In this document: in pieces, positions 1 through 31,921 of the stretch | Numbering within the stretch: position 1 is the first letter of the stretch | Layout of the letters: every line of letters starts with the position of its first letter | Virus record (IMG/VR): IMGVR_UViG_2531839529_000007 | DNA from: a virus | Lineage: Duplodnaviria; Heunggongvirae; Uroviricota; Caudoviricetes | Length of the DNA: 38,184 bases | Strand: one strand, 5' to 3' | Notes under the pieces: model-generated | Databases searched by the model: none | The model's input: only the letters and a program-made list of their open reading frames with translations | Told to the model about the DNA's origin: nothing | Program-made: the position numbers and the translations under genes

Positions 1-1254
1 ATGCTGGAACAAATGGGCATTGCCGCGAAGCAAGCCTCGTATAAATTAGCGCAACTCTCCAGCCGCGAAAAAAATCGCGTGCTGGAAAAAATCGCCGATG
101 AACTGGAAGCACAAAGCGAAATCATCCTCAACGCTAACGCCCAGGATGTTGCTGACGCGCGTGCCAATGGCCTTGGCGAAGCGATGCTTGACCGTCTGGC
201 ACTGACGCCCGCACGGCTGAAAGGCATTGCCGATGATGTGCGCCAGGTGTGTAACCTCGCCGATCCGGTGGGGCAGGTAATCGATGGCAGCGTACTGGAC
301 AGCGGCCTGCGTCTTGAGCGTCGTCGCGTGCCGCTGGGGGTGATTGGCGTGATTTATGAAGCGCGCCCGAACGTGACGGTTGATGTCGCTTCGCTGTGCC
401 TGAAAACCGGTAATGCGGTGATCCTGCGTGGTGGCAAAGAAACCTGTCGCACTAACGCGGCAACGGTGGCGGTGATTCAGGACGCCCTGAAATCCTGTGG
501 CTTACCGGCGGGTGCCGTGCAGGCGATTGATAATCCTGACCGTGCGCTGGTCAGTGAAATGCTGCGTATGGATAAATACATCGACATGCTGATCCCGCGC
601 GGCGGGGCTGGTTTGCATAAACTGTGCCGCGAACAGTCGACAATCCCGGTGATCACAGGTGGTATAGGCGTATGCCATATTTACGTTGATGAAAGCGCAG
701 AGATCGCTGAAGCATTAAAAGTGATCGTCAACGCGAAAACTCAGCGACCGAGCACATGTAATACGGTAGAAACGTTGCTGGTGAATAAAAACATCGCCGA
801 TAGCTTCCTGCCCGCATTAAGCAAACAAATGGCGGAAAGCGGCGTGGCATTACACGCAGATGCAGCTGCGCTGGCGCAGTTGCAGACAGGCCCTGCGAAG
901 GTGGTGGCGGTTAAAGCCGAAGAGTATGACGATGAATTTCTGTCATTAGATTTGAACGTTAAAATCGTCAGCGATCTTGACGATGCCATCGCCCATATTC
1001 GTGAACACGGCACACAACACTCCGATGCGATCCTGACCCGCGATATGCGCAACGCCCAGCGTTTTGTTAACGAAGTGGATTCGTCCGCTGTTTACGTTAA
1101 CGCCTCTACGCGTTTTACCGACGGCGGCCAGTTTGGTCTGGGTGCGGAAGTGGCGGTAAGCACACAAAAACTCCACGCGCGTGGCCCAATGGGGCTGGAA
1201 GCACTGACCACTTACAAGTGGATCGGCATTGGTGATTACACCATTCGTGCGTAA
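1..1254 (+). CDS. proA: Gamma-glutamyl phosphate reductase
   Basis: 417-aa ORF matching my recollection of E. coli ProA along its whole length; followed by thrW as in the enterobacterial proBA-thrW locus. Confidence 0.95.
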
Positions 1255-1368: not shown

Positions 1369-1444
1369 GCCGATATAGCTCAGTTGGTAGAGCAGCGCAT
1401 TCGTAATGCGAAGGTCGTAGGTTCGACTCCTATTATCGGCACCA
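1369..1444 (+). tRNA. thrW: tRNA-Thr (anticodon CGU)
   Basis: 76-nt sequence GCCGATATAGCTCAGTTGGTAGAGCAGCGCATTCGTAATGCG...GGCACCA with clear cloverleaf elements, CGT anticodon and 3' CCA; a known phage integration target. Confidence 0.95.
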
Positions 1445-1458
1445 TTTAAATCAATAAG

Positions 1459-2622
1459 TTACACATCATTAGTACCTTCCTTATTTTTTGACTGGGACAA
1501 ATTTGGGACCGATGGGTTCAGGATCGAGTCTATTTGCCGTGCGTGTTCGGTAAGGTGATTAGGTGCAAGGTGAGCATATCGACGAACCATTTCGATAGAC
1601 TCCCAGCCTCCCATTTCCTGTAACACTGACAACGGGACTCCGGCTTGAACCAGCCAGCTTGCCCAGGTGTGTCTCAAGTCGTGAAATCTGAAATCATCAA
1701 TACCAGCCCGTCTCAGCGCCGCTTTCCAGGCTGTGTTTGCGTCATACCGCATCTTCCTGACCGTTGGCGCTTTCGTTCCGTCTGGTTTGGTACAGCTTTC
1801 CTTGTACACAAATACCCAACGGTGATGATTCCCGATTTGTTTTTTCAATACGCGACATGCAGTATCATTCAGCGCAACGCCAATTGCGCGGTTTGATTTA
1901 CTCTCTTCCGGGTTTATCCATGCCACCCGGCGCTGCATGTCTATTTGTTGCCATTCAAGGTTGATGATGTTCGAGCGTCTTAAGCCTGTTGCCAGTGCAA
2001 ATTCAACAACAGACTTTAATGGCTCCGGACATTCATCAATCAGCCTTTGTGCTTCATGGGGCTCCAGCCAGCGGATCCGTTTATTCTTTGGTTGAGGCAC
2101 TTTAATAATTGGTGCCTTATCCAGCATTTTCCATTCACGCTCTGCGGCTCTTAGTAGGGCCTTTATAAATGAAAGATGCGTAGCCTTCGTTGCAACGGAC
2201 GCTGGTTTTGGCGTGTATTCTGGAACAGGTTTCCCTTTTTTTCTGCATGCTTCTGCCCTGAGTTTCCAGTTTTCCTCATGACGCCGGTTCGTCATTTTCT
2301 GCATTGCTGAATAAATTTTTGATTCAGTAATGTCTCTTAGTTGCATTCCTGCGAAATGTTGAAGCCAAAATCCGATCCGGCTTTTGTCATCGTCCAGTGA
2401 TTTTTTATGTGCTTTCTCTTCAAGCCACCTGACACACGCTTCCTCGAACGTTATATCAGGTATTTCACCAAGTTTGCTGACCCGCCATGCTTCAGCCTTT
2501 AGCTTGTCATGGAGTTCTGTCGCCTGCCTTTTGTCCTTTGTTCCAAGAGACTGTTTAAATCTTTTACCGTTCGGCAATGTGAAACTGGCGTACCATATTT
2601 CACCTCTGCGGAAGAGTGACAT
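1459..2622 (-). CDS. int: Tyrosine integrase, P22-like
   Basis: 387 aa, very close to my recollection of phage P22 Int (conserved HDLRHTWAS...VRRYAHL C-terminal catalytic region); stop codon 14 nt from the thrW 3' end, typical attL-proximal position. Confidence 0.93.
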
Positions 2623-5612: not shown

Positions 5613-5975
5613 TTAATGACCTGCTGCGCGGAGTTTTCCGTCAGGTTCACCGGCAAGAGTCAGTAATTGTCCCTGGTCTTCCTGCAGAATAGTCAGGCGA
5701 CCACCGCGATTGACATACATCGGCGTTTCGGTGGTGTCTTCTTCGGAAATTTTCCCGCGGTTAGTCGGGCGAACATATGAGAGTTTGTGTTTGATTTTCA
5801 CACGGTTCTCATCAAATGGTTCGATTTCCAGGTTGAGTGAGACCTTACCTTTGGTTTTCGTGTTCATCACACCGGAAGCGACTTCACTGAGAACTGCGCC
5901 GATTTTGGTTTCAAATACGCCGCCGTCCAGCTCCCCGATAAATGCCTGCACATCAGTACTGCGTTCGCTAGCCAT
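5613..5975 (-). CDS. Hypothetical prophage protein (YfdP-like)
   Basis: 120 aa from the ATG at 5975, which has an AGGAG SD 7 nt upstream (MASERSTDVQAFIGELDGG...). The track's 226-aa ORF is an unlikely N-terminal extension through GC-rich intergenic DNA. Confidence 0.6.
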   Translation of the reverse strand: MASERSTDVQAFIGELDGGVFETKIGAVLSEVASGVMNTKTKGKVSLNLEIEPFDENRVKIKHKLSYVRPTNRGKISEEDTTETPMYVNRGGRLTILQEDQGQLLTLAGEPDGKLRAAGH

Positions 5976-6023
5976 TTTGCTGCTCCTCATCATATCGACC
6001 CTGCAAGGCCGATTAGTTTCTCC

Positions 6024-6112
6024 ACAAAACAGAGAAGAACACCTGCGGTAGCAGCCGCCCGGATGGATTGGGTTATGAGCCCGTCGTCCGGTGATGCTCT
6101 TCTCTGTTTTGT
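6024..6112. repeat. Perfect 15-bp inverted repeat enclosing a 59-nt GC-rich segment
   Basis: 6024-6038 (ACAAAACAGAGAAGA) is the exact reverse complement of 6098-6112; the enclosed loop has further internal complementarity (GCGG..CCGC, CCGGA..TCCGG). Lies in the divergent intergenic region. Confidence 0.4.
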
Positions 6113-6412
6113 AAAAAGGACGGTACCAGCCGGAAGCAAGGGTACAAACTGGTACCGCCAGGACTACACACAGCATAAAGTTGTGGTGCCGGGTGCCTCC
6201 CGGTGCCTGGCGAAGGTTGCACACCAGACGGGTGGGTATCCACAGAAGGTCGACTGTCAGCCTCAACCTTAACCCGCGTGCGCTGAGCCGCATTCACCAC
6301 AACGCTAAGGATTCTCTTTGGTTGAAAATACTTAGCTGTTATGTGCCTGTCTTTTCACCACTTCAGGCTCGGTGGTATCCTTTTAAGCCCGTATACATAA
6401 AAGGAAAATCAA

Positions 6413-6641
6413 ATGACTTTTGATGAAAAAGAACTTGATAATGCAATTAATAAAATCATCGTAACGTCGCTCTTTTCCTGTCTCAGCGACACTCAGCAGA
6501 AACAGTTCTACGAATCGGCTTTCAACATGATCGAGCGTTGTTGTTTCTGCGATGCCGACGAGTTACCTGAAAAAATCAGGAAACAGTTGGCTGATGCTCT
6601 TCGAGTGCGACTTTCTGACCAATTTTCTGAAATGTGCTCTC
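6413..6641 (+). pseudogene. Hypothetical gene truncated by IS911 insertion
   Basis: ATG at 6413 with an AAGGA SD; reading frame runs straight into the IS911 terminal inverted repeat at 6642 (...SEMCSL then IS sequence). Confidence 0.55.
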
Positions 6642-6671
6642 TGAAGTGGTCAACAAAAACTGGCCACCGAG

Positions 6672-7157
<486 letters not shown>

Positions 7158-7180
7158 CTATTTCCCTGCCTCTCCTCCCC

Positions 7181-7214
7181 GAACCGGACGTGCACCTTTC
7201 AGCGCATCCGGCTC
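7181..7214 (-). ncRNA. Group II intron domain V (catalytic hairpin)
   Basis: Minus strand GAGCCGGATGCGCTGAAAGGTGCACGTCCGGTTC: 34-nt hairpin with AGC triad region, bulge and GAAA tetraloop, followed by a domain VI-like hairpin and the 3' splice site. Confidence 0.8.
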
Positions 7215-7219
7215 TCCAT

Positions 7220-8743
7220 TTAAATGCTGGCGAACGCCATTGCCACTTCTGTAAAGCGCGATGTATACGTGTTTCTGGTCTCCGTCCTCAGATAGGGATT
7301 ACCTTCGGGTAGCCGCCAGCGGAACAGCTTCTTGCCTTGCCCCACCAACCGGTACAGTATTTCGCCGCTGAGCTTGCCGTGATTGGTTTTACCAAATAAA
7401 ACCCACGTTTTGCTCTGACCCGGTTTCGGTGATTTACACCACCACCTCATCAGGGAAGCGATACCTGTACGGTATTTGCGGGCCAGCCAGTGAGCCAGCT
7501 TCCAGAACACGACACGGTCGATATAACTGAAGACTTTGGCCTTAAAATCAACGAACTGATAGAACATGGCCCAGCCTTTCAGTTTTCGGTTGAGTTGTTC
7601 AGCCATATCGACTTTGCTTTCACTGTAGTTGCCTGATAACAGTGCTGTCAGCGATGCGGCGAAGTTTCTGGCTTTCTCCTGCGGGATCGTTGAGACCACT
7701 CGCATCTCGCCATAACGACTGCGTTTGCGAATGATCCTGTGCCCCAGAAAGATAAAGCCGTCATTAACATGGGTGATTTTAGTCTTATCCATGTTCAGCC
7801 TGAGTTTCAGACTGCCTTCGAGCACACCCCGACACTCCTCCCTGATGGCTTCCGCCTGTGCTTTGGTGCCTTTGACGATGAGGACAAAATCATCGGCATA
7901 GCGGCAGTACGCCACCGCGGGTTTCCACTGCCAGTTTTCTCTGACCGCCGTACTTCGGCCCCGTTGGATACTGTTATTCCAGTACCACCGATCTTTTCTG
8001 GCTTTCCCGCTCAGGTAGCGCTCATGCAGGTATTGATCGAACTCATTCAGCATGATGTTCGATAATAGCGGCGATATAACACCGCCCTGTGGCACACCTT
8101 CACTGGCCGCCCGAAAGAGACCGACATCGATATGTCCCGCCTTGATGGTTTTCCACAGCAGAGTCATGAAACGTGCGTCACTGATCCTGCGGCGTACAGC
8201 CTTCATCAGCAGTCGATGATGTACGGTGTCGAAGTAACTGGACAGGTCGCCTTCAATCACCCAGCGTCCCCGGGTTTCACCACAGTCTGTGAGCTGTAAT
8301 TTCACCGTGCGGATAGCGTGGTGGACACTGCGCTCAGGCCGGAAGCCATATGAGAGCGTATGAAAATCACTCTCCCATATCGGCTCCATCGCCATCAGCA
8401 TGGCCCGCTGAACAATACGATCCCGCAACGCGGGGATACCCAGTGGTCGCAGTTTGCCGTTGCTTTTAGGGATGTAAACCCGTCTGGCGGGCAAGGGCTG
8501 GTAGTGGCCTGAGAGTAATTCATCCCTGAGGATTTGCAGCTCAACAGCTAGTCTGGCCTGTAGCATTGTTTTGTTCACGCCATCAACGCCGGGGGTATGG
8601 GCCCCCTTTGATGAAAGCGTGATCCGCGCCGCTTCAGCCAGCCATTCTGGTTGTGTTATCAGACGCAGCAGCCGTTGAATCCGTAGGGACGGATCGGTGA
8701 CTGCCCATGTGGCAAGCTTGCGTTGCATTTCGCTGATTATCAA
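7220..8743 (-). CDS. Group II intron-encoded reverse transcriptase/maturase
   Basis: 507 aa with RT motifs (GVPQGGVISPLLSNIMLNEFD; YADDFVLIV) and a C-terminal maturase-like region; no obvious HNH endonuclease domain. Confidence 0.9.
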   Translation of the reverse strand: MIISEMQRKLATWAVTDPSLRIQRLLRLITQPEWLAEAARITLSSKGAHTPGVDGVNKTMLQARLAVELQILRDELLSGHYQPLPARRVYIPKSNGKLRPLGIPALRDRIVQRAMLMAMEPIWESDFHTLSYGFRPERSVHHAIRTVKLQLTDCGETRGRWVIEGDLSSYFDTVHHRLLMKAVRRRISDARFMTLLWKTIKAGHIDVGLFRAASEGVPQGGVISPLLSNIMLNEFDQYLHERYLSGKARKDRWYWNNSIQRGRSTAVRENWQWKPAVAYCRYADDFVLIVKGTKAQAEAIREECRGVLEGSLKLRLNMDKTKITHVNDGFIFLGHRIIRKRSRYGEMRVVSTIPQEKARNFAASLTALLSGNYSESKVDMAEQLNRKLKGWAMFYQFVDFKAKVFSYIDRVVFWKLAHWLARKYRTGIASLMRWWCKSPKPGQSKTWVLFGKTNHGKLSGEILYRLVGQGKKLFRWRLPEGNPYLRTETRNTYTSRFTEVAMAFASI

Positions 8744-9399
8744 AGGTCTTCACCTCGTTAGGTCAGTTAATTCACGTCGCAAACACATTCAAACTGCTTC
8801 CCTTCGCCATGTAATGGGCTTTCCCCATCGCGGACTACTACGGAAGCTCCGCCAGCCAGCGCGTCATCGGAGCCATGCCCCCTTAACATCCGTCGCTGAC
8901 CTTCCCCGGTTTACCTGCCTGGACTCAGGCATACTGAGGAGGCTGCCCGTCGCACTCTTTATCCTTGCTTGCCGCAAGTTGGCAGAAGTCAGCAACGCAA
9001 GCGTGATAGACGCTGCTGCCCCGGTGTTTCGCATACATGTCAAAACACCTTCGACCGGCAGTGCTTACGTATCACTGCCAGTTCCTCCTGCACGGCCTGT
9101 CAGATCACGTAGGCCGTGGTGACGTTTTCAACCCACAGAGGCGGATTAACGGGTTCATGTTCTTCAGCCTTTCAGTACTTAACCTTGAGGATCATCTCGG
9201 CTTAGTGATCTCGCCTCAATCCCCGTTGTCAGCGGGTTACATCACCCTGCGGGCATGCCGCAGGTCACTGCCGCTCAGGTTCTCCACCGTCACACCCGGT
9301 GGGATTGTTGGGTTTCTCATCGTGAGTTACCGGTTCAATATTCCAGACAGACTCGCGGTTCATTTAAGCATCCATGTCCGCCCTGAACTCCGGGCACAC

Positions 9400-10089
<690 letters not shown>

Positions 10090-10211: not shown

Positions 10212-10538
10212 ATGCCTCATAACCCAAATACCTGGCTGGAGTTGGTCCAGAGCTGGTGGCGTGGAGACACACCGCTGGGCGCAGTGATTATGTCGATCGT
10301 TATGGCTGGTTTACGTATTGCCTATTTTGGCGGCGGTGGCGGCTGGAAACGAAAAACACTCGAAATTTTGCTCTGTGGCGCTCTGACGCTGACATTTGCA
10401 TCCGCTCTTGAGTATGTCGGATGGCCTAAATCACTTTCTGTTGCCATTGGTGGTGGTGTTGGGCTGATCGGTGTCGATGCTATTCGTGGGGCAGCAATGC
10501 GAGTAATCGGTAACAAATTTGGTAGCTCGAAGGAGTAA
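10212..10538 (+). CDS. Holin (lambda S-like class)
   Basis: 108 aa with hydrophobic segments and a lambda S-like pattern, immediately upstream of the endolysin gene. Only about 50 bp separate it from the IS end, so no room for a late promoter. Confidence 0.7.
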   Translation: MPHNPNTWLELVQSWWRGDTPLGAVIMSIVMAGLRIAYFGGGGGWKRKTLEILLCGALTLTFASALEYVGWPKSLSVAIGGGVGLIGVDAIRGAAMRVIGNKFGSSKE

Positions 10539-10541
10539 TTT

Positions 10542-11018
10542 ATGCAGGCACTAAATTCCCAGCGTAAAGCTTTCCTTGATATGGTGGCATGGTCAGAAGG
10601 AACGGATAACGGGCGACAACCGACACGTAACCACGGTTATGACGTTATTGTTGGTGGTGAACTGTTTACTGATTACTCCGATCACCCTCGCAAACTTGTC
10701 ACGCTAAACCCCAAACTCAAATCAACAGCCGCCGGACGTTATCAGCTTCTTTCACGCTGGTGGGATGCTTACCGTAAGCAGCTTGCTCTGAAAGACTTCT
10801 CTCCGAAAAGCCAGGATGCTGTGGCATTGCAGCAGATTAAGGAGCGTGGCGCTTTACCGATGATTGATCGCGGTGATATTCGTCAGGCAATTGACCGTTG
10901 CAGCAATATCTGGGCTTCACTGCCGGGCGCTGGTTATGGTCAGTTCGAGCATAAGGCTGACAGCCTGATTGCAAAATTCAAAGAAGCAGGCGGAACGGTC
11001 AGAGAGATTGAGGTATGA
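10542..11018 (+). CDS. R: Endolysin (lambda R-type lytic transglycosylase)
   Basis: 158 aa, near-identical over most of its length to my recollection of lambda R ([22 protein letters not shown]...); AAGGAG SD. Confidence 0.92.
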
Positions 11019-11476
11019 GCAGAGTAACCGCGATTATTTCCGCTCTGGTTATCTGCATCATCGTTTGCTTGTCATGGGCTGTTAATCATTACCGCGATAA
11101 CGCCATTACCTACAAAGCCCAGCGCGACAAAAATGCCAGAGAACTGAAGCTGGCGAACTCGACAATTACTGACATGCAGATGCGTCAGCGTGATGTTGCT
11201 GCGCTCGATGCAAAATACACGAAGGAGTTAGCTGATGCGAAAGCTGAAAATGATGCTCTGCGTGATGATGTTGCCGCTGGTCGTCGTCGGTTGCACATCA
11301 AAGCAGTCTGTCAGTCAGTGCGTGAAGCCACCACCGCCTCCGGCGTGGATAATGCAGCCTCCCCCCGACTGGCAGACACCGCTGAACGGGATTATTTCAC
11401 CCTCAGAGAGAGGCTGATCACTATGCAAAAACAACTGGAAGGAACCCAGAAGTATATTAATGAGCAGTGCAGATAG
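11015..11476 (+). CDS. Rz: Spanin, inner-membrane subunit (Rz)
   Basis: 153 aa with N-terminal TM segment, lambda Rz-like; ATGA overlap with the R stop. Confidence 0.88.
11235..11417 (+). CDS. Rz1: Spanin, outer-membrane lipoprotein subunit (Rz1), embedded in Rz
   Basis: 60 aa in the +1 frame inside Rz; lipobox (LVVVGC) and proline-rich body as in lambda Rz1. Confidence 0.85.
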
Positions 11477-11507
11477 CGCTGCCCATATCGATGGGCAACT
11501 CATGCAA

Positions 11508-11801
11508 TTATTGTGAGCAATACACCCGCGCTTCCAGCGGAGTATAAATGCCTAAAGTAATAAAACCGAGCAATCCATTTACGAATGTTTGCTGGGTTTC
11601 TGTTTTAACCACATTTTCTGCGCCGCCACAAATTTTGGCTGCATCAACAGTTTTCTCCTGTCCAATTCCCGAAACGAAGAAATGATGGGTGATGGTTTCC
11701 TTTGGTGTTACTGCTGTCGGTTTGTTTCCAACAGTAAACGTCTGTTGAGCACATCCTGTAATAAGCATTGCCAGAGCGGCAGAAAACAACATTTTTTTCA
11801 T
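11508..11801 (-). CDS. bor: Bor lipoprotein (serum-resistance-associated)
   Basis: 97 aa from MKKMLFSAALAMLITGC..., matching lambda Bor; lipoprotein signal peptide; GGA SD. The track ORF has a 16-aa upstream extension. Confidence 0.88.
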   Translation of the reverse strand: MKKMLFSAALAMLITGCAQQTFTVGNKPTAVTPKETITHHFFVSGIGQEKTVDAAKICGGAENVVKTETQQTFVNGLLGFITLGIYTPLEARVYCSQ

Positions 11802-11981
11802 CTTATTATCCTGCATTGTTAAAAACGGCAGAATCCTATGTGACAACAATTAAACGATAGTTAAATGGATTGATGAAAATTAAAACTATATAGGTGTACG
11901 GTCAGACTATTGGAGGTAGTCAGGATTTGAATGTCAGTCTGTTGTCGGCATTCTGGCAATGCAATTTGGATAAAGCGGGGA

Positions 11982-12104
11982 TTAAAAAGATAGAGGCGAG
12001 CCGGTCAGGTAGAAATGAATCAGGCTCAAAGTGAAGCGGAAAAGGTCTGTGGTACAAGCTGATGCAGCCATAATTACAGCCTGATGATTTGTGGAATGAA
12101 ACAT
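11982..12104 (-). CDS. Candidate small protein (40 aa), partly hydrophobic
   Basis: ATG at 12104 preceded by a perfect AAGGAGG SD 6 nt upstream; encodes MFHSTNHQAVIMAASACTTDLFRFTLSLIHFYLTGSPLSF; upstream of and co-oriented with bor. Below the 60-aa track cut-off. Confidence 0.35.
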   Translation of the reverse strand: MFHSTNHQAVIMAASACTTDLFRFTLSLIHFYLTGSPLSF

Positions 12105-12184
12105 GTTGAACCTCCTTAATTGATGTTATTCGAGTGATGAAGGCATTCTGTCCTTCTATAGTGTCCAGTAAATCAAACAGGAAA

Positions 12185-12206
12185 CTTGTCCAACGTGTTG
12201 GACAAG
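12185..12206. promoter_or_regulatory. Perfect 10+2+10 palindrome (possible operator or terminator), followed by a second hairpin at 12221-12241
   Basis: CTTGTCCAAC-GT-GTTGGACAAG is self-complementary; GAGTTGT-ATTGATC-ACAACTC follows 15 nt later; both lie in the AT-rich region between bor and the HNH gene. Confidence 0.3.
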
Positions 12207-12326
12207 CCTCTCCATTAGTGAGTTGTATTGATCACAACTCTACAAAGAATTCATTACTGGGTAGATGAAAATAGTTTCACGATGAATGGAGGAGGCTATG
12301 TCGGTGGCTTCTTCATTGGAGTACAT

Positions 12327-20510: not shown

Positions 20511-21990
20511 CACCATTCCGTCGAATACGCTGGTTCCGCTGTTTTATGCGGAAATGGATAACCAGGCTGCGAATACTGCACAGGACAGCGGAGCATCGCT
20601 GCTGATTGGTCATGCCAGTAACGGTGCAGAGATTGTTGCCAACAGTCTGGTGCTGATGCCGTCGGCAGACTATGCACGCCAGATTTGTGGTGCGGGAAGT
20701 CAGCTGGCGCGTATGGTCGAGGCTTATCGCCAGACCGACCCGTTTGGTGAGCTGTATGTGATTGCCGTTCCGGAAGCCACAGGCGCGGCGGCAACGGTTA
20801 CGCTGACGGTGACCGGGGAAGCAACCGAAAGCGGCACGGTGAATGTCTATGTGGGACGTACCCGCGTGCAGGCTCCGGTGACCAACGGCGATAACGTCAC
20901 GACGATTGCCAGCAGTATCAAAGATGCCATCAATGCCGTTCCGGCCCTGCCGTTTACGGCTTCATCTTCGGCAGGTGTGGTCACACTGACCGCGCGTCAT
21001 AAGGGGCTTTGCGGGAATGAAATTCCTGTCAGCCTCAATTACTACGGCTTTGGTGGGGGCGAAGTGCTGCCAGCGGGCGTACAGATTGCCGTGGCGACGG
21101 GTACCGCCGGAACGGGTGCTCCGGTTCTCACCGGCGCGGTGGCTGCAATGGCGGATGAGCCGTTTGATTATATCGGCCTGCCGTTCAACGACACGGCCTC
21201 CGTTAACACGCTGGTGACCGAGATGAACGATACCAGCGGTCGCTGGAGCTATGCGCGTCAGCTGTATGGTCATGTGTATACGGCAAAGATCGGCACGCTG
21301 TCAGAACTGGTGACCGCAGGTGACCAGTTTAACCAGCAGCACATTACCCTGGCGGGGTACGAAAAAGAGACCCAGACGCCTGCCGACGAACTGGCGGCAA
21401 GCCGTACCGCCCGCGCAGCGGTGTTTATTCGCAACGATCCGGCACGTCCCACGCAGACCGGTGAGCTGGTGGGTATGCTGCCTGCGCCGAAGGGGAAACG
21501 GTTCACGATGACCGAACAACAGACCCTGCTGTCTCATGGCGTGGCAACGGCGTATGTCGAAAGCGGGGTACTGCGCATTCAGCGTGATGTCACCACGTAC
21601 AGGAAAAACGCTTACGGGGTTGCGGATAACAGCTACCTCGACAGTGAGACACTGCATACCAGCGCGTATGTACTGCGCAAACTGAAATCCGTCATTACCA
21701 GTAAGTACGGGCGTCACAAGCTTGCCAGTGACGGTACCCGCTTTGGTCCCGGTCAGGCGATTGTCACCCCGGCGGTGATCAAAGGGGAACTGCTGGCAAC
21801 CTACCGTCAGCTTGAGCGTGCGGGGATCGTGGAAAACTACGAACTGTTTAAGCAGTACCTGGTTGTGGAGCGTGATGCCAGCGATCCGAACCGCCTGAAC
21901 ACGCTGTTCCCGCCTGACTATGTTAACCAGTTGCGTGTCTTTGCCGTGGTTAACCAGTTCCGTCTTCAGTATTCAGAGGAGTCTGCATAA
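20494..21990 (+). CDS. Contractile tail sheath protein (Mu gpL-like)
   Basis: 498 aa; followed by a TAATG-coupled tube gene. Confidence 0.88.
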   Translation: MTISFNTIPSNTLVPLFYAEMDNQAANTAQDSGASLLIGHASNGAEIVANSLVLMPSADYARQICGAGSQLARMVEAYRQTDPFGELYVIAVPEATGAAATVTLTVTGEATESGTVNVYVGRTRVQAPVTNGDNVTTIASSIKDAINAVPALPFTASSSAGVVTLTARHKGLCGNEIPVSLNYYGFGGGEVLPAGVQIAVATGTAGTGAPVLTGAVAAMADEPFDYIGLPFNDTASVNTLVTEMNDTSGRWSYARQLYGHVYTAKIGTLSELVTAGDQFNQQHITLAGYEKETQTPADELAASRTARAAVFIRNDPARPTQTGELVGMLPAPKGKRFTMTEQQTLLSHGVATAYVESGVLRIQRDVTTYRKNAYGVADNSYLDSETLHTSAYVLRKLKSVITSKYGRHKLASDGTRFGPGQAIVTPAVIKGELLATYRQLERAGIVENYELFKQYLVVERDASDPNRLNTLFPPDYVNQLRVFAVVNQFRLQYSEESA

Positions 21991-22615: not shown

Positions 22616-22764
22616 CGGCTGAATACCTCACTGATCGCTTCTTTGACTGCGCCAGCTACTGGCGCATTAATCCCTTCGAATTGCTGAATATGCCGATCAG
22701 TGAAATTCCCTTGCTGGTCAGTCAGGCAAACAGGATAGAGCAGGAGAAACGCACACATGGCTGA
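22346..22764 (+). CDS. Tail assembly chaperone, -1 frameshift extended form
   Basis: Slippery heptamer T-TTT-TTC at 22597-22603 in the zero frame (GGT TTT TTC); a -1 shift continues into the overlapping ORF (...FFPPGLTAEYLTDRFF...) that ends at the tape-measure start. Confidence 0.6.
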
Positions 22765-24589
22765 ATTTGAGCTTAAGGCGTTGATCACCGGTGTCGACAG
22801 GCTTTCTCCCGCGCTGTCGAAAATGCAAAAGAAAATCCGGGGATTTAAACGCCAGGCGGAAGAAGCGTCACAGGGTGGGCTGGCGCTTGGTGGCGGACTG
22901 GCTGCGGGTCTGACGCTTTCCCTGAAATCTTATGCCGATCAGGAAAACGCCGCCACCGGGCTGAAAGTTGCCATGATGGATGCGAACGGTGAGGTCGGAA
23001 AGAGCTTTCAGGACATCAATAAACTGGCTATTGGCCTGGGTAACCAGCTACCCGGTACAACGGCTGATTTCCAGAACATGATGCAGATGCTGGTGCGTCA
23101 GGGGATCCCGGCAGAAAACATTCTGGGTGGTGTGGGTAAAGCGACAGCTTATCTTGCGGTACAACTGAAAAAAACACCGGAAGCGGCTGCCGAGTTTGCC
23201 GCAAAGATGCAGGATGCTACCGGAACGGCCTCAGAAGACATGATGGGGCTGTTCGACACAATTCAGAAGGCGTTTTATCTGGGCGTTGACGACACCAACA
23301 TGCTGTCATTCTTCACTAAAACCAGCTCTGTTCTGAAGATGGTGAATAAGGACGGTCTTCAGGCTGCACAGAGTCTTGCCCCCATCAGTGTCATGATGGA
23401 TCAGATGGGGATGAACGGGGAGTCGGCAGGTAATGCCCTGCGAAAAGTTATCCAGTCCGGATTAAGCGTTAAGAAAATCAGGGACGTCAATAAAATCATG
23501 GCCCGCCAGAAACTCGGGGTACAGCTCGATTTTACTGATGGCAAAGGGAGTTTTGGCGGTCTTGATAACATGTTCAGGCAACTGGCAAAGCTGCGAAAAC
23601 TGACCGACGTTAAGCGAACCGGTGTACTTAAGGCAATATTTGGTGATGATGCCGAAACCCTTCAGGTGGTCAATGCTCTGATCGATAAAGGAAAGGATGG
23701 TTACGATCAGATCCAGCAGAAGATGCATAAACAGGCCAGCCTGAATAAACGTGTTCAGGCACAGCTTGGTACGCTGTCCAACCTGTGGGAGGCAATGACG
23801 GGGACCGCAACTAACGGCCTTGCGGCTATTGGCGGCGCATTTTCTGGTGACGCCAAAAATATCACGCAATGGCTGGGGGAGTTGGGGGAAAAATTCACGA
23901 AGTTTGCGGATGAAAATCCCCGGGTTATTCGCGGCGTCGTCGGGCTTGCTGCCGGTCTTGCGATTCTGAAACTGGGATTGATGGGCGTGGGCAGTGCCAT
24001 CAGCATTGTCAGCAGGATCATGTCGATGACGCCGATTGGCATGATTGCGACGGCGATAGCCCTGGCTGCGGGATTAATTATCACTAACTGGGATGTTGTC
24101 GGACCTTATTTCAAGAAGCTCTGGGAAACCATTGGTCCTTATTTTGAGGCTGGCTGGGAACTCCTTAAGAAAGTTTTTGCCTGGTCGCCGATGGGGATGG
24201 TGATCAATAACTGGGGGCCGGTTGTTAAGTGGTTTCAGGATATGTGGGACAAGCTGAAGCCAATTATTGAGTGGTTTACCGACAGTTCCGGTGACACGGT
24301 CGATGCCATTAACTCTGCGCAGTGGGGCGCGGGTGCTTATGATGCTTATGGGACGGGAATACCGGCACGGGGATACACTCCTTATCCGGCGGTGGATCCG
24401 GCTCAGGCAAACAACGCCTCCGATGCCACAGGCTCGAATCCCTTCATGATTAATAAAGCTACCGCGCCAAAAGTTGATGGTGAGATCAAGGTATCATTTA
24501 TAAATATGCCACCAGGTATGCGGGTTACGGAAACACGCTCCAGTGGCATTGATATAAATCACGATGTTGGCTATACCCGATTTTGGTAG
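22757..24589 (+). CDS. Tail tape measure protein
   Basis: 610 aa, alanine/glycine-rich with hydrophobic central segments; position after the chaperone pair. Confidence 0.88.
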   Translation: MAEFELKALITGVDRLSPALSKMQKKIRGFKRQAEEASQGGLALGGGLAAGLTLSLKSYADQENAATGLKVAMMDANGEVGKSFQDINKLAIGLGNQLPGTTADFQNMMQMLVRQGIPAENILGGVGKATAYLAVQLKKTPEAAAEFAAKMQDATGTASEDMMGLFDTIQKAFYLGVDDTNMLSFFTKTSSVLKMVNKDGLQAAQSLAPISVMMDQMGMNGESAGNALRKVIQSGLSVKKIRDVNKIMARQKLGVQLDFTDGKGSFGGLDNMFRQLAKLRKLTDVKRTGVLKAIFGDDAETLQVVNALIDKGKDGYDQIQQKMHKQASLNKRVQAQLGTLSNLWEAMTGTATNGLAAIGGAFSGDAKNITQWLGELGEKFTKFADENPRVIRGVVGLAAGLAILKLGLMGVGSAISIVSRIMSMTPIGMIATAIALAAGLIITNWDVVGPYFKKLWETIGPYFEAGWELLKKVFAWSPMGMVINNWGPVVKWFQDMWDKLKPIIEWFTDSSGDTVDAINSAQWGAGAYDAYGTGIPARGYTPYPAVDPAQANNASDATGSNPFMINKATAPKVDGEIKVSFINMPPGMRVTETRSSGIDINHDVGYTRFW

Positions 24590-24617
24590 CCAGGATTCCC
24601 CTCACATGTATTGCTGG

Positions 24618-24645
24618 TTGTAAGTCATAAATAGAGTGATAGAAT
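24618..24645 (+). promoter_or_regulatory. Sigma-70-type promoter for the tail-module moron
   Basis: -35 TTGTAA (24618-24623), 16-bp spacer, extended -10 TGa-TAGAAT (24637-24645), about 35 nt upstream of the moron ATG. Confidence 0.5.
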
Positions 24646-24680
24646 TAATGCACATTTAGAAAAATGTTAATAGGCGAAAA

Positions 24681-25211
24681 ATGAAAGGCTATATCACAGC
24701 AAGTGTAATTCTTGGAGCAGCGGCTATTTTTTCATCTCTCATAATCTCTGGCAACATCTCCTTTAAAGATGAACATATTATTCAGTTATCTGGAGGAGCC
24801 ATAAAACTTGGTGATGTTTATAAAGAAAATAAATTGATAAGTGCAAAGATTATTTTTCCAGATAATCAGGGTGAACAGATTCTTGTTGTCGACGGCAATC
24901 CTGAAAACTTTAAGGAGGATTTTCAGGAGAAATTAAATAAAGTAATAAAAACTTTAAATGCGTCAAAGAAAAAAGATGAAGAGAAAGTTAGCCTGGATAA
25001 TTTAAGTGTTATTGAAGAGTCTAAACTAGAGCTCGTTTCTGCGGTGCGTTACTCTGCTCAGTATGTTCCTATGTTTACTCTGACGCTGGACAAAAAAGAA
25101 ATTACCATGCCTAAAAATACGGTAATATTTCCATTTGCCAGCGATGAAACAGCTAAGTATTTAAATGAACAACAGCAAAAGTATAAAGATTCGTTGTTTC
25201 TGACTCGCTAA
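24681..25211 (+). CDS. Membrane-anchored hypothetical protein (low-GC moron in the tail operon)
   Basis: 176 aa; N-terminal hydrophobic anchor (ITASVILGAAAIFSSLIISG) and a lysine-rich body; markedly AT-rich compared with flanking tail genes; own promoter and terminator. Confidence 0.7.
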   Translation: MKGYITASVILGAAAIFSSLIISGNISFKDEHIIQLSGGAIKLGDVYKENKLISAKIIFPDNQGEQILVVDGNPENFKEDFQEKLNKVIKTLNASKKKDEEKVSLDNLSVIEESKLELVSAVRYSAQYVPMFTLTLDKKEITMPKNTVIFPFASDETAKYLNEQQQKYKDSLFLTR

Positions 25212-25231
25212 TTAATAAAATTCATTACAAG

Positions 25232-25263
25232 GCCACCTTCTAATAGGTGGCTTTTTTATTTTC
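25232..25263 (+). terminator. Rho-independent terminator after the moron
   Basis: GCCACCT-TCTAAT-AGGTGGC stem-loop followed by TTTTTTATTTT. Confidence 0.75.
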
Positions 25264-25266
25264 GGA

Positions 25267-26601
25267 GTGTATATGACGTGGAAAGACAGGCTTCAGGATG
25301 CGTCATTTCGAGGTGTGCCGTTTAAGGTTGAAGAAGAAAGTGCGGGAACCGGTCGCCGTGTGGAAACACATGAATACCCGAACCGCGACAAGCCCTATAC
25401 CGAAGATCTGGGAAAAGTCACTTTCCGCCCGTCCATCACAGCTTATGTGGTGGGAGATGACTGCTTTGACCAGCGCGATCGCCTGATTGAAGCGCTGAAT
25501 AAACCCGGTCCCGGCACGCTTGTCCACCCGACATATGGTGAGCTGAAAGTCTGTGTTGACGGGGAAGTTCGGGTCAGCACATCGAAAAGTGAAGGGCGTA
25601 TTGTCCGCTTTGACCTGAAGTTTGTCGAAGCAGGAGAACTCTCTTACCCCACATCAGGTGCGGCGACGGCGCAGACGCTGATGTCATCCTGTTCTGCACT
25701 GGATGACTGCATCAGTGACAGCTTCAGCGGTTTCAGTATCGATGGTGTGGCGGATTTCGTGCAGAACGACGTTATCGGTAATGCCAGCATAATGCTGGGG
25801 TATGTTTCTGATGCGATGAAAGTGGTGGATTCTGCCGTATCGGATGCTGCCAGGCTGTTGCAGGGGGATATCTCGGTACTTCTGCCGCCGCCATCGTCAG
25901 GCAAAAATTTCGTTGAGCAGGAGCAGAAAATGTGGCGTACCGGGAAACGCCTTTATGGTAACGCCAGCGACCTGGTCACCATGATCAAAACGCTTTCCGG
26001 TGTCAGCCTCGGCAGCGATCTGCAACCGCGCGGCGTCTGGAAAACGGACAGTAAAACCACCGCCACGGCTACGCAGCAGCGTAATGTGGTTACCAGCACC
26101 CTTCGTACGACCGCAATCAGCGAAGCGGCGTATGCCGTCACCCGATTGCCTGCGCCAACAACTTCCGCGGTGATGCAGAATGCCGCAGTGGGGCAGGCAA
26201 CAACACCTGCGCAGAGCACTGGCTGGCCTTCCGTCACGCATCCGGCACTGAACAATGCACCGGCGGTGAAAAACACGGTTGACCTGCCGACGTGGGAAGA
26301 ACTGACTGACATTCGCGACACACTGAATACGGCAATTGATAAGGAGTTGTCCCGTACAACCAGTGATGCGCTGTTTCTGGCGCTGCGCCGGGTGAAAGCA
26401 GATCTGAATGCGGATATCAACACGCGCCTTGAACAGTCTGCACGGATCATTCAGCGCACACCGGATGAGGTTTTACCCGCGCTGGTGCTGGCGGCGACCT
26501 GGTTTGATAACGCGGCGCGTGACGCGGACATTATCCGGCGTAATGCCATTACGCATCCCGGCTTTGTGCCGGTGATCCCTCTGAAGGTGCCAGTGCAATG
26601 A
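25267..26601 (+). CDS. DNA circulation protein (Mu gpN-like)
   Basis: 444 aa; GTG start; N-terminal TWKDRLQDASFRGVPF... typical of the Mu N family. Confidence 0.8.
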   Translation: MYMTWKDRLQDASFRGVPFKVEEESAGTGRRVETHEYPNRDKPYTEDLGKVTFRPSITAYVVGDDCFDQRDRLIEALNKPGPGTLVHPTYGELKVCVDGEVRVSTSKSEGRIVRFDLKFVEAGELSYPTSGAATAQTLMSSCSALDDCISDSFSGFSIDGVADFVQNDVIGNASIMLGYVSDAMKVVDSAVSDAARLLQGDISVLLPPPSSGKNFVEQEQKMWRTGKRLYGNASDLVTMIKTLSGVSLGSDLQPRGVWKTDSKTTATATQQRNVVTSTLRTTAISEAAYAVTRLPAPTTSAVMQNAAVGQATTPAQSTGWPSVTHPALNNAPAVKNTVDLPTWEELTDIRDTLNTAIDKELSRTTSDALFLALRRVKADLNADINTRLEQSARIIQRTPDEVLPALVLAATWFDNAARDADIIRRNAITHPGFVPVIPLKVPVQ

Positions 26602-30273: not shown

Positions 30274-30924
30274 ATGCATCGTATAGACACGAAAACCGCG
30301 CAGAAGGATAAGTTCGGCGCGGGTAAGAACGGTTTTACCCGTGGTAATCCCCAGACTGGTACGCCTGCCACCGATCTGGATGATGACTACTTTGACATGT
30401 TGCAGGAGGAGCTTTGCAGCGTTGTGGAGGCATCCGGTGCCAGCCTGGAGAAGGGGCGGCATGACCAGTTGCTTACCGCACTTCGCGCACTGCTGTTAAG
30501 CCGCAATAATCCGTTTGGTGATATCAAATCGGACGGCACGGTACCAACGGCTCTCGAAAACCTTGGTTTGGGAGAAGCGGCGAAAAGGGATGTGGGTACA
30601 GGAGAAAATCAGATACCGGATATGTCAGCCTGGAAAAGAAATCCGAGTTCTAATCGCTGGAGAAAATTGCCTGATGGAACCATCATTCAAATGGGAATAT
30701 CAGCATCAGGGCCATTAGGCTCACCTGTAAATATCACCCTGCCGATATCTTTCAGCAATACCAATTATTGTGTTGTTGCATCGTACGATAATGCACGGTC
30801 AGGTGTGTCAACAATGGTTAGTTTTGCAGCATTACCTGTTTCACCATCGCAATTTTCCCTGATGTCATCTGTGACTGAGCAAGGAATAAATCCTTTTGCT
30901 TACTGGATTGCTTTTGGAGATTGA
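30274..30924 (+). CDS. Tail fibre protein (constant N-terminus plus currently expressed variable C-terminus)
   Basis: 216 aa; a 26-bp crossover site inside the gene (30551-30576) separates the constant part from the invertible variable part. Confidence 0.85.
30551..30576. other. Invertase crossover site (hix/gix-like), left
   Basis: CTCTCGAAAACC-TT-GGTTTGGGAGAA: imperfect 12+2+12 palindrome; its right half-site is identical to the reverse complement of the half-site at 32368-32379. Confidence 0.8.
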
Positions 30925-30927
30925 TAA

Positions 30928-31347
30928 ATGGACAGATACTTCTATTCACAAAAAGAAAATGGTTTTTTTACCGATTTAAATAAAGCACCTTCAGATGCTG
31001 TTGAGATAACCACGGATGAATGGCTATCACTACTGGATGGTCAGGATAATGGCATGAAAATAGTCAGCAATCAGGAGGGATATCCGGTTTTGACAGAGCA
31101 ACCACCTTTATCAAAAGAAAACCTTATTGCATTGGCAGAGTTGAAAAAAGGAAAACTTATTAATGAAGCCAACGAGCACATGAACAGCAGGCAATGGCCT
31201 GGTAAAGCGGCTATTGGTCGTCTGAAAGGTGAGGAACTGGCGCAATATAATTTGTGGCTGGATTATCTGGACGCACTGGAACTGGTTGATTCCTCCAGTG
31301 CGCCAGATATTGAATGGCCTACGCCTCCGGCAGTTCAGGCCAGATGA
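30928..31347 (+). CDS. Tail fibre assembly protein (currently expressed orientation)
   Basis: 139 aa directly after the tail fibre gene. Confidence 0.8.
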   Translation: MDRYFYSQKENGFFTDLNKAPSDAVEITTDEWLSLLDGQDNGMKIVSNQEGYPVLTEQPPLSKENLIALAELKKGKLINEANEHMNSRQWPGKAAIGRLKGEELAQYNLWLDYLDALELVDSSSAPDIEWPTPPAVQAR

Positions 31348-31921
31348 CATCCGGCGCGGTGCTGGTATCTGTTGCCGTCACCGCGTCAATGTAATCCAGC
31401 ACAGCGTTAAGTCGGGTGGTTTCTGCCTGCGTCAGCTTCCGTCCGGCCTGTAGTTTCAGTTGAATCAGACTAATGGAAGCCATTGCTGCATCAATAAGTG
31501 ACTGGCGCAGTGCTTCTGCCGCGTCTACTGCGGCATTATGCTGTGCCTCAGTATCTGTCACCCATTTCTCACCATCCCATTTATCGTATGGCGTTAACGG
31601 GGCGATAGTGGTTGTATTATCAGGGTAATCACCCGGAGCTGTGATTTCTTTTGATTCTCCTGTTTCGGTGCTAAAGACGATTTCACCGCGATGGTCTGGC
31701 ACATATTCCCATGAGTTAAAATCTGCAGATCGGCAGATTGCATAACCAGTTTTGTATGAGCCAGGAGCATCTAAACAGGAACATGCCGGAATGCCGACAC
31801 CCACAGCAAGATATTCAGTTGATGTGAAAATATATTCCCGTGTTTCACCATCATAGTTATAAACCGTAATATTTCCTGCCTGGGTGGCGATAAATTCGTT
31901 ATTTAATACAGCGTAATCCAT
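31319..31921 (-). CDS. Alternative tail fibre assembly protein (inverted orientation)
   Basis: 200 aa on the minus strand, TAATG-coupled to the alternative fibre C-terminal segment; converges on the plus-strand tfa. Confidence 0.8.
   Translation of the reverse strand: MDYAVLNNEFIATQAGNITVYNYDGETREYIFTSTEYLAVGVGIPACSCLDAPGSYKTGYAICRSADFNSWEYVPDHRGEIVFSTETGESKEITAPGDYPDNTTTIAPLTPYDKWDGEKWVTDTEAQHNAAVDAAEALRQSLIDAAMASISLIQLKLQAGRKLTQAETTRLNAVLDYIDAVTATDTSTAPDVIWPELPEA

Follow-up and report, generated by a model that had tools for sequence, protein, structure and literature searches.

The phage proteins T5 Llp, phi80/N15/HK022 Cor, T4 Imm and Sp, and TP-J34 Ltp are small and envelope-tethered, and stop later phages at the receptor or the DNA-entry step. 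Work on gp15 of phage HK97 is reportedly due to Juhala et al. 2000 and Cumby et al. 2012. This gene was the first element to be named a moron; it lies in the tail operon, beside the tape-measure gene, and its product inserts in the inner membrane, where its block to genome entry depends on the tail of the incoming phage (PMC3594210). In the Juhala/Hendrix definition, a moron is extra DNA between adjacent genes, of deviant composition and with its own promoter and terminator, that is expressed from a repressed prophage, and the Cor exclusion protein has been described in the same context (PMC3594210). P22 SieA, a protein of the inner membrane, blocks the DNA-delivery conduit (PMC10883804). Here, we describe a cassette at positions 24590-25266 of the virus record IMGVR_UViG_2531839529_000007, a stretch of 38,184 nucleotides that we refer to as the window. 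The window contains an SfV-type, thrW-integrated Escherichia coli prophage with Mu-like tail genes, and the cassette, which encodes a protein of 176 amino acids, lies between its genes for the tape measure (TMP) and Mup43. We consider this region very probably a moron cassette, that is, an autonomous accessory unit.

The cassette resembles the gp15 moron in several respects. Both are autonomous cassettes of deviant GC content with their own terminator, both lie beside a tape-measure gene, and both encode a small inner-membrane product; the gp15 moron also has its own promoter, for which the window cassette has a candidate. Homologs outside prophages are also found in both cases: YebO for gp15, and an orphan gene in Lelliottia and copies in Pseudomonas islands for the window protein. 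However, gp15 lies upstream of the tape measure in a siphovirus, whereas the tape measure of the window, in a contractile Mu-like module, has the cassette on its downstream side. The two proteins have no detectable sequence relationship, as a Pfam search at E<=10 gave no YebO match for the window protein. In addition, gp15 is described as small, with an N-terminal region resembling YebO (PMC3594210), whereas the window protein has a predicted folded periplasmic domain of ~140 residues. Finally, exclusion was demonstrated for gp15, whereas we infer it for the window protein.

The initial annotation had placed the cassette in a Mu-like tail operon, and gene set and order agree with this: sheath, tube, chaperones, TMP, Mup43 (DNA-circulation/baseplate hub) and then homologs of Mup44-48. 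The blocks on either side had been called translationally coupled, and within each flank stop and start codons do overlap or abut (at 21990, 22346, 26598 and 27677). When the region around the cassette was searched with megablast, SfV, SfI, SfII, SfIV and several Escherichia phages were retrieved at 94-99% identity. The flanks are ~620 bp closer together in SfV, SfI, SfII and 689R6, with no insert between them. The insert is also absent from SfIV, which carries a different TMP allele, and there TMP is directly followed by Mup43. In junction alignments with SfII, SKA5, SfIV and 720R4, the homology shared with cargo-less relatives breaks off in the last 1-2 TMP codons and starts again at the T-run, immediately ahead of the Mup43 ribosome-binding site. 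Neither direct nor inverted repeats bracketing the cassette were found, and transposition and site-specific insertion were dropped as explanations for this reason. Since no repeats are present, homologous recombination is the simplest exchange mechanism, and most likely the cassettes are swapped between related prophages through the conserved flanks.

Occupancy of the slot was assessed by a census in which the query consisted of the two flanks only and the target of 5426 complete E. coli genomes. The slot was found in 1093 genomes (~20%), with both flanks in 863. For a survey of spans, a 60-row sample was spread down the ranking of flank matches. Most sampled spans were 855 bp long, i.e., empty, and the others were ~1475, 1381, 1288, 1613 and 1295 bp; a slot occupied by the window cargo spans ~1475 bp. 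The window cargo was present in 179 of the 5426 genomes, the SKA5 type in 85 and the OB-fold type in 79, and the E. coli bearing the window cargo came from many hosts and sources. Flanks 95-98% identical to those of the window held different cargos, which implies replacement in situ.

Seven distinct cargo types, all of 31-42% GC, were retrieved from the sampled spans and two phage records. Those on the same strand as the tail operon are the window protein (176 amino acids, N-terminal transmembrane anchor), the SKA5 type (170 amino acids, predicted signal peptide), the 720R4 type (162 amino acids, predicted signal peptide), a bPH_1 protein (PF08000; 125 amino acids, no hydrophobic segment) and the MEI2B type (225 amino acids, a predicted lipoprotein with the lipobox LLGGC). 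A tRNA_anti-like OB-fold protein (PF12869; 148 amino acids, N-terminal transmembrane segment) and the CUWW06 type (145 amino acids, two hydrophobic segments) are encoded on the opposite strand and must therefore have their own promoters, as autonomous units. The cargos are mutually unrelated by BLASTP, a truncated OB-fold gene copy being the only exception. Six of the seven types are predicted envelope proteins, as judged by a signal peptide, lipobox or transmembrane segment, and no PADLOC match was obtained for any other cargo of the slot.

The insertion had been expected to vary among related prophages, and it does: it is absent from SfV, SfI, SfII, SfIV, 689R6 and most sampled E. coli, and unrelated cassettes are present elsewhere. 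A component conserved in all related tail modules would look different, since most sampled modules lack the gene. The arrangement is similar to the hotspots of P2-like prophages and P4 satellites (PMC9122126), in which unrelated cargos interchange at a fixed backbone position among close E. coli prophages. Unlike those hotspots, the slot belongs to a different phage group and position, and holds single small genes, mostly for envelope proteins, with no PADLOC match. The TMP-Mup43 junction is a cargo hotspot that has not been described before and in which envelope proteins are enriched; among the results listed by keyword searches (titles, abstracts), none described it as a hotspot.

The open reading frame (ORF) of 176 codons predicted between the tape-measure and DNA-circulation genes was located there, with the flanks recognized by PHROG match (Table 1), and no rival ORF of at least 40 amino acids occurs on either strand within 24590-25266. 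Its GC content is 34.3% (29.9% at third codon positions), compared to tape-measure and Mup43 gene values of 51.6% and 55.7%, respectively. The ORF is the lowest-GC stretch of the window (z = -4.7 vs the structural-gene region), in line with the claim that it is far more AT-rich than its flanks (34% vs 52-56% GC). The extended -10 promoter that the initial annotation had assigned to the cassette is a candidate. The motif TTGTAA-16-TGaTAGAAT is exactly where it was reported, matches 9 of 12 consensus positions in addition to the extended -10, and ends 35 nucleotides before the ATG; however, such motifs are no more frequent here than in shuffled sequence. Support for the candidate comes from its position and its partial conservation in diverged cassettes rather than from the motif alone. 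Most slot homologs have promoter-like hexamers in front of them, with a -35 that aligns with the one in the window; in cassettes of the Leclercia type and of Lelliottia, the aligned -35 reads TTGnnA and the -10 varies.

A clean intrinsic terminator had also been reported, and a 10-bp stem with a T-run was found, with the caveat that the empty SfII site has a hairpin and T-run too, annotated there as a terminator. An equivalent hairpin and T-run follows every tail-slot homolog as well as the orphan copy. A terminator-like element before Mup43 is thus constant in the slot, with each cassette bringing a different stem. A non-coding RNA reading of the region was dropped, as permissive Rfam searches gave only sub-threshold leader-like matches, on the terminator hairpin. 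The cassette is absent from close relatives, deviates in GC content and has its own terminator. The classic moron signature that had been proposed for it is apparent in an AT-rich insertion with a promoter-like site and a terminator, absent from most relatives and replaced by unrelated cassettes in others. The kind of element is classical, and the cassette shows the moron traits that sequence analysis can assess, with the promoter as a candidate.

Homologs of the cargo were detected in the same TMP-Mup43 slot of Leclercia-type prophages and metagenomic contigs (53-55% identity) and of Edwardsiella anguillarum (41%); a search for related loci among species-representative genomes found only that of Edwardsiella. 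Since homologs at 41-55% identity occupy the same slot in other genera, the association with the slot appears to be old and the insertion not recent. Identity is lower for the cargo (41-55%) than for Mup43 (68%), the sheath (75%) and Mup44 (82%). The cargo does not track the TMP allele: in two Leclercia loci, TMP is 36% (L005 6147-7931) vs 77% (L010 6141-7931) identical to that of the window, and cargo identity is 53-55% in both. We also observed that sheath, Mup43 and Mup44 identities of these two modules are equal, indicating that the tape-measure gene is itself mosaic.

Copies were also found outside tail modules. In Lelliottia amnigena (JBPJUX010000018.1; L009 7810-8581), an orphan cassette of ~770 bp lies directly downstream of icd. 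The promoter region, gene and terminator are kept together with the 41 final codons of TMP, the fragment stops precisely at the point where Mup43 would begin, and no other phage genes are present in 16.5 kb. Its ORF is intact, with a ratio of nonsynonymous to synonymous substitution rates (dN/dS) of 0.04 relative to a Leclercia prophage copy, and the copy resembles either a moron that has been domesticated or a final remnant of a decayed prophage. Family members at the greatest distance (21-24% identity) occur in marine Pseudomonas, in small islands with a resolvase, integrase or DUF5906 gene. A 180-amino-acid gene upstream of these island copies was considered as a tandem paralog and rejected, as it is unrelated to the family. 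In addition, a remote homolog is a lipoprotein of the lytic Pseudomonas phage ventosus (MG018930; CNR37_00111, L026 1995-2429, minus strand), which was matched by Foldseek (E 7e-7, probability 1.0) and hhalign (E 4.7e-5). In this protein, the domain begins 3-4 residues after the lipidated Cys. The ventosus genome is 97 kb long; CNR37_00111 is among its early/middle genes, far from the lysozyme gene, and is a 'hypothetical protein' in GenBank. The Pseudomonas island copies, the Lelliottia orphan and a divergence that exceeds that of the neighbours and is independent of the TMP allele indicate that the family behaves as mobile accessory cargo and not as tail hardware.

The window protein is 'hypothetical' in all sources, and its exact sequence is present on at least 1000 contigs. 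It had no match in Pfam (at E<=10), NCBIfam or PADLOC, and its only PHROG matches, phrog_5485 and phrog_34391, are both labelled 'unknown function'. WP_000679479 was not mentioned in the literature searched. A tblastn search of the cargo against 50,697 phage records gave no match, and the distant member P0072 gave chance matches only. A word-indexed search found only E. coli copies (~99% identical) and Leclercia/Lelliottia proteins (52-58% identical). In contrast, an exhaustive profile search of 1.84 billion representatives (cut-off E<=1e-3) yielded a family of 77 representatives, nearly all 165-200 amino acids long. Among three diverged copies, dN/dS was 0.04-0.08, implying a functional gene under purifying selection.

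An alignment of 57 sequences revealed an N-terminal hydrophobic helix, a juxtamembrane motif N-h-h-x3-G-x-V-x-L-G-x-V-Y-x-E and a second motif V-x-Y-x-S-E-x-x-P-x-F-x-L, which appear in the window protein as G39-x-x-x-L43-G44-x-x-Y-x-E49 and Y124...P130-x-F-x-L134. Invariance or near-invariance is limited to Gly, Leu, Tyr and one Glu, a set that makes the domain look non-enzymatic. The AlphaFold model reached a predicted local distance difference test score (pLDDT) of 62 with 14 sequences, and 92.1, with a predicted template modelling score of 0.77, when the 57-sequence alignment was used with AlphaFold2. In the model, a linker of ~9 residues (24-32) separates the anchor helix from a compact domain composed of a beta-hairpin (33-42), strands 46-58 and 65-72, helix 74-93, strands 114-126 and 132-143, and helix 149-171. 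No PDB match was found for this confidently predicted fold, and neither fold nor sequence searches (Pfam, PHROG, PADLOC) matched a known exclusion protein, the YebO/gp15, Imm and SieB types included. The family is new: it is uncharacterized, and solved structures do not match its predicted fold.

A signal-anchor helix had been predicted from the sequence at the outset, and the family data favor it. A single hydrophobic segment occurs in all 57 members, with no second segment in any. The N-side flank is more positive than the C-side flank in 52 of the 57 (net charge +1.95 vs -0.61). In P0090, P0096 and P0102, an extension of 45-115 residues of cytoplasmic type precedes the segment, and the segment in these members is therefore not an N-terminal signal peptide. 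The accompanying description of a lysine-rich body was right as to lysine content (11.9%), but the protein is net acidic (isoelectric point 5.95, or 5.6 without the anchor). Based on the charge bias, the single segment, the N-terminal extensions and the lipoprotein variant, the window protein is probably a bitopic inner-membrane protein of N-in/C-out topology, with its domain placed by the model in the periplasm ~9 residues from the inner membrane.

These features suggest the following mechanism. The sigma-70-like promoter candidate would drive transcription of the cargo in the lysogen. Lysogen transcription from an own promoter is supported indirectly by the opposite-strand cargos of the slot, which must be autonomous. 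Late phage transcription would read through the cassette terminator, presumably with a Q-type antiterminator; Q has been reported in the SfV group (SfIV paper, PMC3851460). The product would be a bitopic inner-membrane protein with a periplasmic alpha/beta domain of ~140 residues on a short tether, and this domain would bind the tape-measure, ejection or hub protein of an incoming phage at the inner membrane or, alternatively, a host inner-membrane factor that the phage needs. Binding would block genome entry in the manner of HK97 gp15 and P22 SieA. By analogy with these proteins, superinfection exclusion at the inner membrane is our best guess for the function, one that we hold with a little less than even confidence.

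The window protein may therefore act like gp15 or SieA, but by sequence it is no member of their families. It has no similarity to SieA in Pfam or PHROG searches; SieA targets podovirus ejection proteins, whereas the setting here is contractile-tailed, and the P22 paper gives no tail-gene slot placement of sieA (PMC10883804). With regard to the other exclusion proteins, the lipoprotein form of the fold in ventosus parallels the anchoring of Llp and Ltp, but no sequence or family match to Llp, Cor, Imm, Sp or Ltp was obtained in Pfam, PHROG, NCBIfam or PADLOC. Llp and Cor act at outer-membrane receptors. With a linker of only ~9 residues, action at the inner membrane fits the window protein better than receptor masking, which the model makes unlikely unless the domain is released.

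Several observations weigh against inner-membrane exclusion by a protein made in the lysogen. Promoter-like matches in the 1.8-kb region number 3 vs 3.1 expected from shuffles, and the promoter motif by itself is not above chance. In one Leclercia cassette, the -10 at the aligned position is a poor one (CGCAAT), and H-NS may silence a 34%-GC island in E. coli. The sequence I-x-S23 of the window protein fits the -3/-1 rule and Ser23 is invariant, so signal peptidase may cleave the anchor after this residue. The cargo is oriented as the late operon, which makes late co-transcription and a lytic-cycle role possible. In addition, the early region, from the putative repressor pair to the lysis genes (10212 on), looks short and carries a group II intron, and replication or Q functions may be missing from the prophage through loss. 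No Q-like antiterminator was identified in the window, where the ORFs of 8697-10024 gave no PHROG match at E<=1e-5.

We ranked inner-membrane exclusion ahead of a host-fitness envelope factor, a late lytic-cycle accessory and an abortive-infection sensor, in this order. A lysogenic-conversion factor that helps the host outside phage defence, in envelope physiology, stress tolerance, colonization or colicin/serum resistance (cf. lambda Bor and Lom), would have the same moron anatomy and envelope location, and would suit a cargo carried by E. coli from so many sources. There is good documentation of morons whose products serve purposes other than defence (PMC3594210). The Lelliottia orphan, kept after the loss of other phage genes and at low dN/dS relative to the prophage copy, can be read in the same sense, but would be retained equally for defence. 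Searches of Pfam and NCBIfam revealed no similarity to Bor, Lom or a known virulence family. The homolog in a strictly lytic Pseudomonas phage, for which exclusion or take-over is more sensible, favors a phage-versus-phage role over host virulence, and we regard a host-benefit role as unlikely. A lower probability is assigned to a non-essential late lytic-cycle accessory, co-transcribed with the tail genes, that stops progeny from injecting into lysing cells and debris or modulates lysis or tail maturation. The position inside the late operon in the same orientation, the homologs at 41-55% identity that hold exactly the same slot across genera, the homolog in a lytic phage and the weak promoter evidence are all compatible with such a role. 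However, SfV, SfI, SfII and SfIV were isolated as plaque-forming phages without the gene; two alternative cargos are on the opposite strand and so are not late-operon genes; a strong terminator separates the gene from the downstream tail genes; and the copies in the orphan cassette and the islands lie outside any phage context. A holin, an endolysin and an Rz-type spanin are also already encoded elsewhere in the prophage. i-spanins typically have a coiled-coil periplasmic domain, whereas the domain here is alpha/beta. A spanin (i-spanin, Rz type) was accordingly rejected as a candidate, the gene being ~13 kb from the lysis cassette and its domain globular.

A membrane abortive-infection or sensor-effector protein, which senses phage at the envelope and kills or arrests the cell, e.g., by membrane depolarization, is quite improbable. 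The cargo is indeed a membrane protein that a prophage encodes as a single gene within a variable hotspot, and its divergence beyond that of its neighbours is compatible with an arms race. Nevertheless, it has one transmembrane helix only, no second hydrophobic segment was seen in the 57 members, and neither a pore-forming or enzymatic signature nor a PADLOC match was found. Its position inside the tail operon would fit an ordinary part of the Mu-like tail, with a role in structure or assembly, or else a spurious ORF within an AT-rich spacer, but the chance of either is very slight. Purifying selection, 77 representatives of similar length and a confident fold indicate a real gene, and a membrane anchor argues against a tail part. 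A structural tail component was rejected because SfV, SfI, SfII, SfIV and most sampled modules lack the gene, and copies occur outside tail modules and outside phages.

Table 1. Features of the cassette, its product and the surrounding prophage (window positions).
Feature	Position	Strand	Remarks
Cargo coding sequence, 176 amino acids, ATG start	24681-25211	+	RefSeq WP_000679479.1 'hypothetical protein'; phrog_5485
Sigma-70-like promoter candidate	24618-24645	+	-35 TTGTAA 24618-24623; 16-nt spacer; TG 24637-24638; -10 TAGAAT 24640-24645
Weak Shine-Dalgarno AGG	24672-24674	+	6 nt before ATG, read from sequence
Intrinsic terminator	25229-25262	+	Stem-loop 25229-25254, 10-bp stem, 6-nt loop, ~-15 kcal/mol; T-run to 25262
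Residues 2-23, predicted transmembrane signal-anchor helix	24684-24749	+	AlphaFold helix; Kyte-Doolittle score of 2.1 for residues 5-23
Residues 33-171, compact alpha/beta domain, predicted periplasmic	24777-25193	+	AlphaFold2
Tape-measure gene (left flank)	22757-24589	+	phrog_28/17727
Right flank: ribosome-binding site and Mup43/DNA-circulation/baseplate-hub gene	25264-26601	+	GGAG 25264-25267; phrog_184, phrog_17109
proA-like aldehyde-dehydrogenase-family gene	1-1254		Start of window
tRNA-Thr(CGT), thrW	1369-1444		Between proA-like gene and integrase
Tyrosine integrase	1459-2622	-	Adjoins tRNA-Thr(CGT)
Putative repressor pair	5613-6796		
Group II intron catalytic domain RNA	7130-7216	-	Rfam RF00029, 64.9 bits
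Group II intron reverse transcriptase/maturase ORF	7220-8743	-	PF00078, PF08388
Lysis cassette: holin, endolysin, Rz-like spanin	10212-11476		Spanin phrog_13; ~13 kb from cassette
113-amino-acid ORF in low-GC patch	11508-11849	-	
Gp53-like tail-fibre gene	30274-30924		
Tail-fibre/assembly ORFs, opposed orientation	30928-31347; 31319-31921, 31921-32376	+; -, -	PF02413
Gin/Pin-type serine invertase	32448-33002		PF00239 and HTH_7
LEM-3-like GIY-YIG nuclease	33061-33885	-	
M78/ImmA-type peptidase and adjoining small ORF	34525-35439	-	
Bro-N protein	35746-36507		
Trypsin-like peptidase	37138-38184		Runs off window end

Other parts of the window were also examined (Table 1). The attachment site is directly readable in 1-2622 (proA-like gene, tRNA-Thr(CGT) and integrase), and its tRNA-Thr region is what we take to be the thrW attachment region of the Shigella flexneri SfV/SfI/SfII group (also in the SfI and SfIV papers). 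In the SfV group, gtr serotype-conversion genes lie beside the integrase; they are absent from this position in the window prophage. The start of Mup43 is given as ATG 25273 in RefSeq for the identical locus of E. coli S51, and as GTG 25267, overlapping the GGAG site, in the ORF listing. A second variable position of the same tail module lies between Mup43 and Mup44 in Leclercia-type prophages, where two extra genes (~503-507 and 94 amino acids; L005 10013-11808, L010 10012-11819) had no Pfam match. Unlike in these prophages, Mup43 and Mup44 overlap directly in the window (26598-26601).

A Mu G-segment-like invertible tail-fibre region was seen at 30274-33002. Beyond its invertase, 33061-38184 is a second, far larger AT-rich block, with GC as low as 34-35%, which may represent an island for cargo or defence genes at the end of the prophage. 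A possible second moron is the low-GC patch (39%) at 11501-12300, which directly follows the Rz-type spanin gene and precedes the genes for the HNH endonuclease and terminase.

It was beside a tape-measure gene that the first inner-membrane exclusion protein encoded by a prophage, HK97 gp15, came to light, yet few such proteins have a known mechanism. In its broadest form, which is possible but doubtful, our proposal is a new family of membrane-tethered periplasmic proteins that would act at the inner membrane to keep contractile-tail phages from delivering their genomes and would have spread as a mobile cassette, through tail slots, integrative islands, a lytic phage lipoprotein and a chromosomal orphan; the slot, in about one-fifth of E. 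coli genomes, would then be a hotspot for envelope-acting anti-phage cargo. The gene is a tractable candidate, being a single gene of 176 codons for which near-identical prophages with the slot empty or with another cargo are natural controls. If the protein were inactive against phages, the Lelliottia orphan would point to a role in host physiology. The slot itself could be mined, like the P2/P4 hotspots, for entry-level envelope-acting functions outside the PADLOC catalogue.

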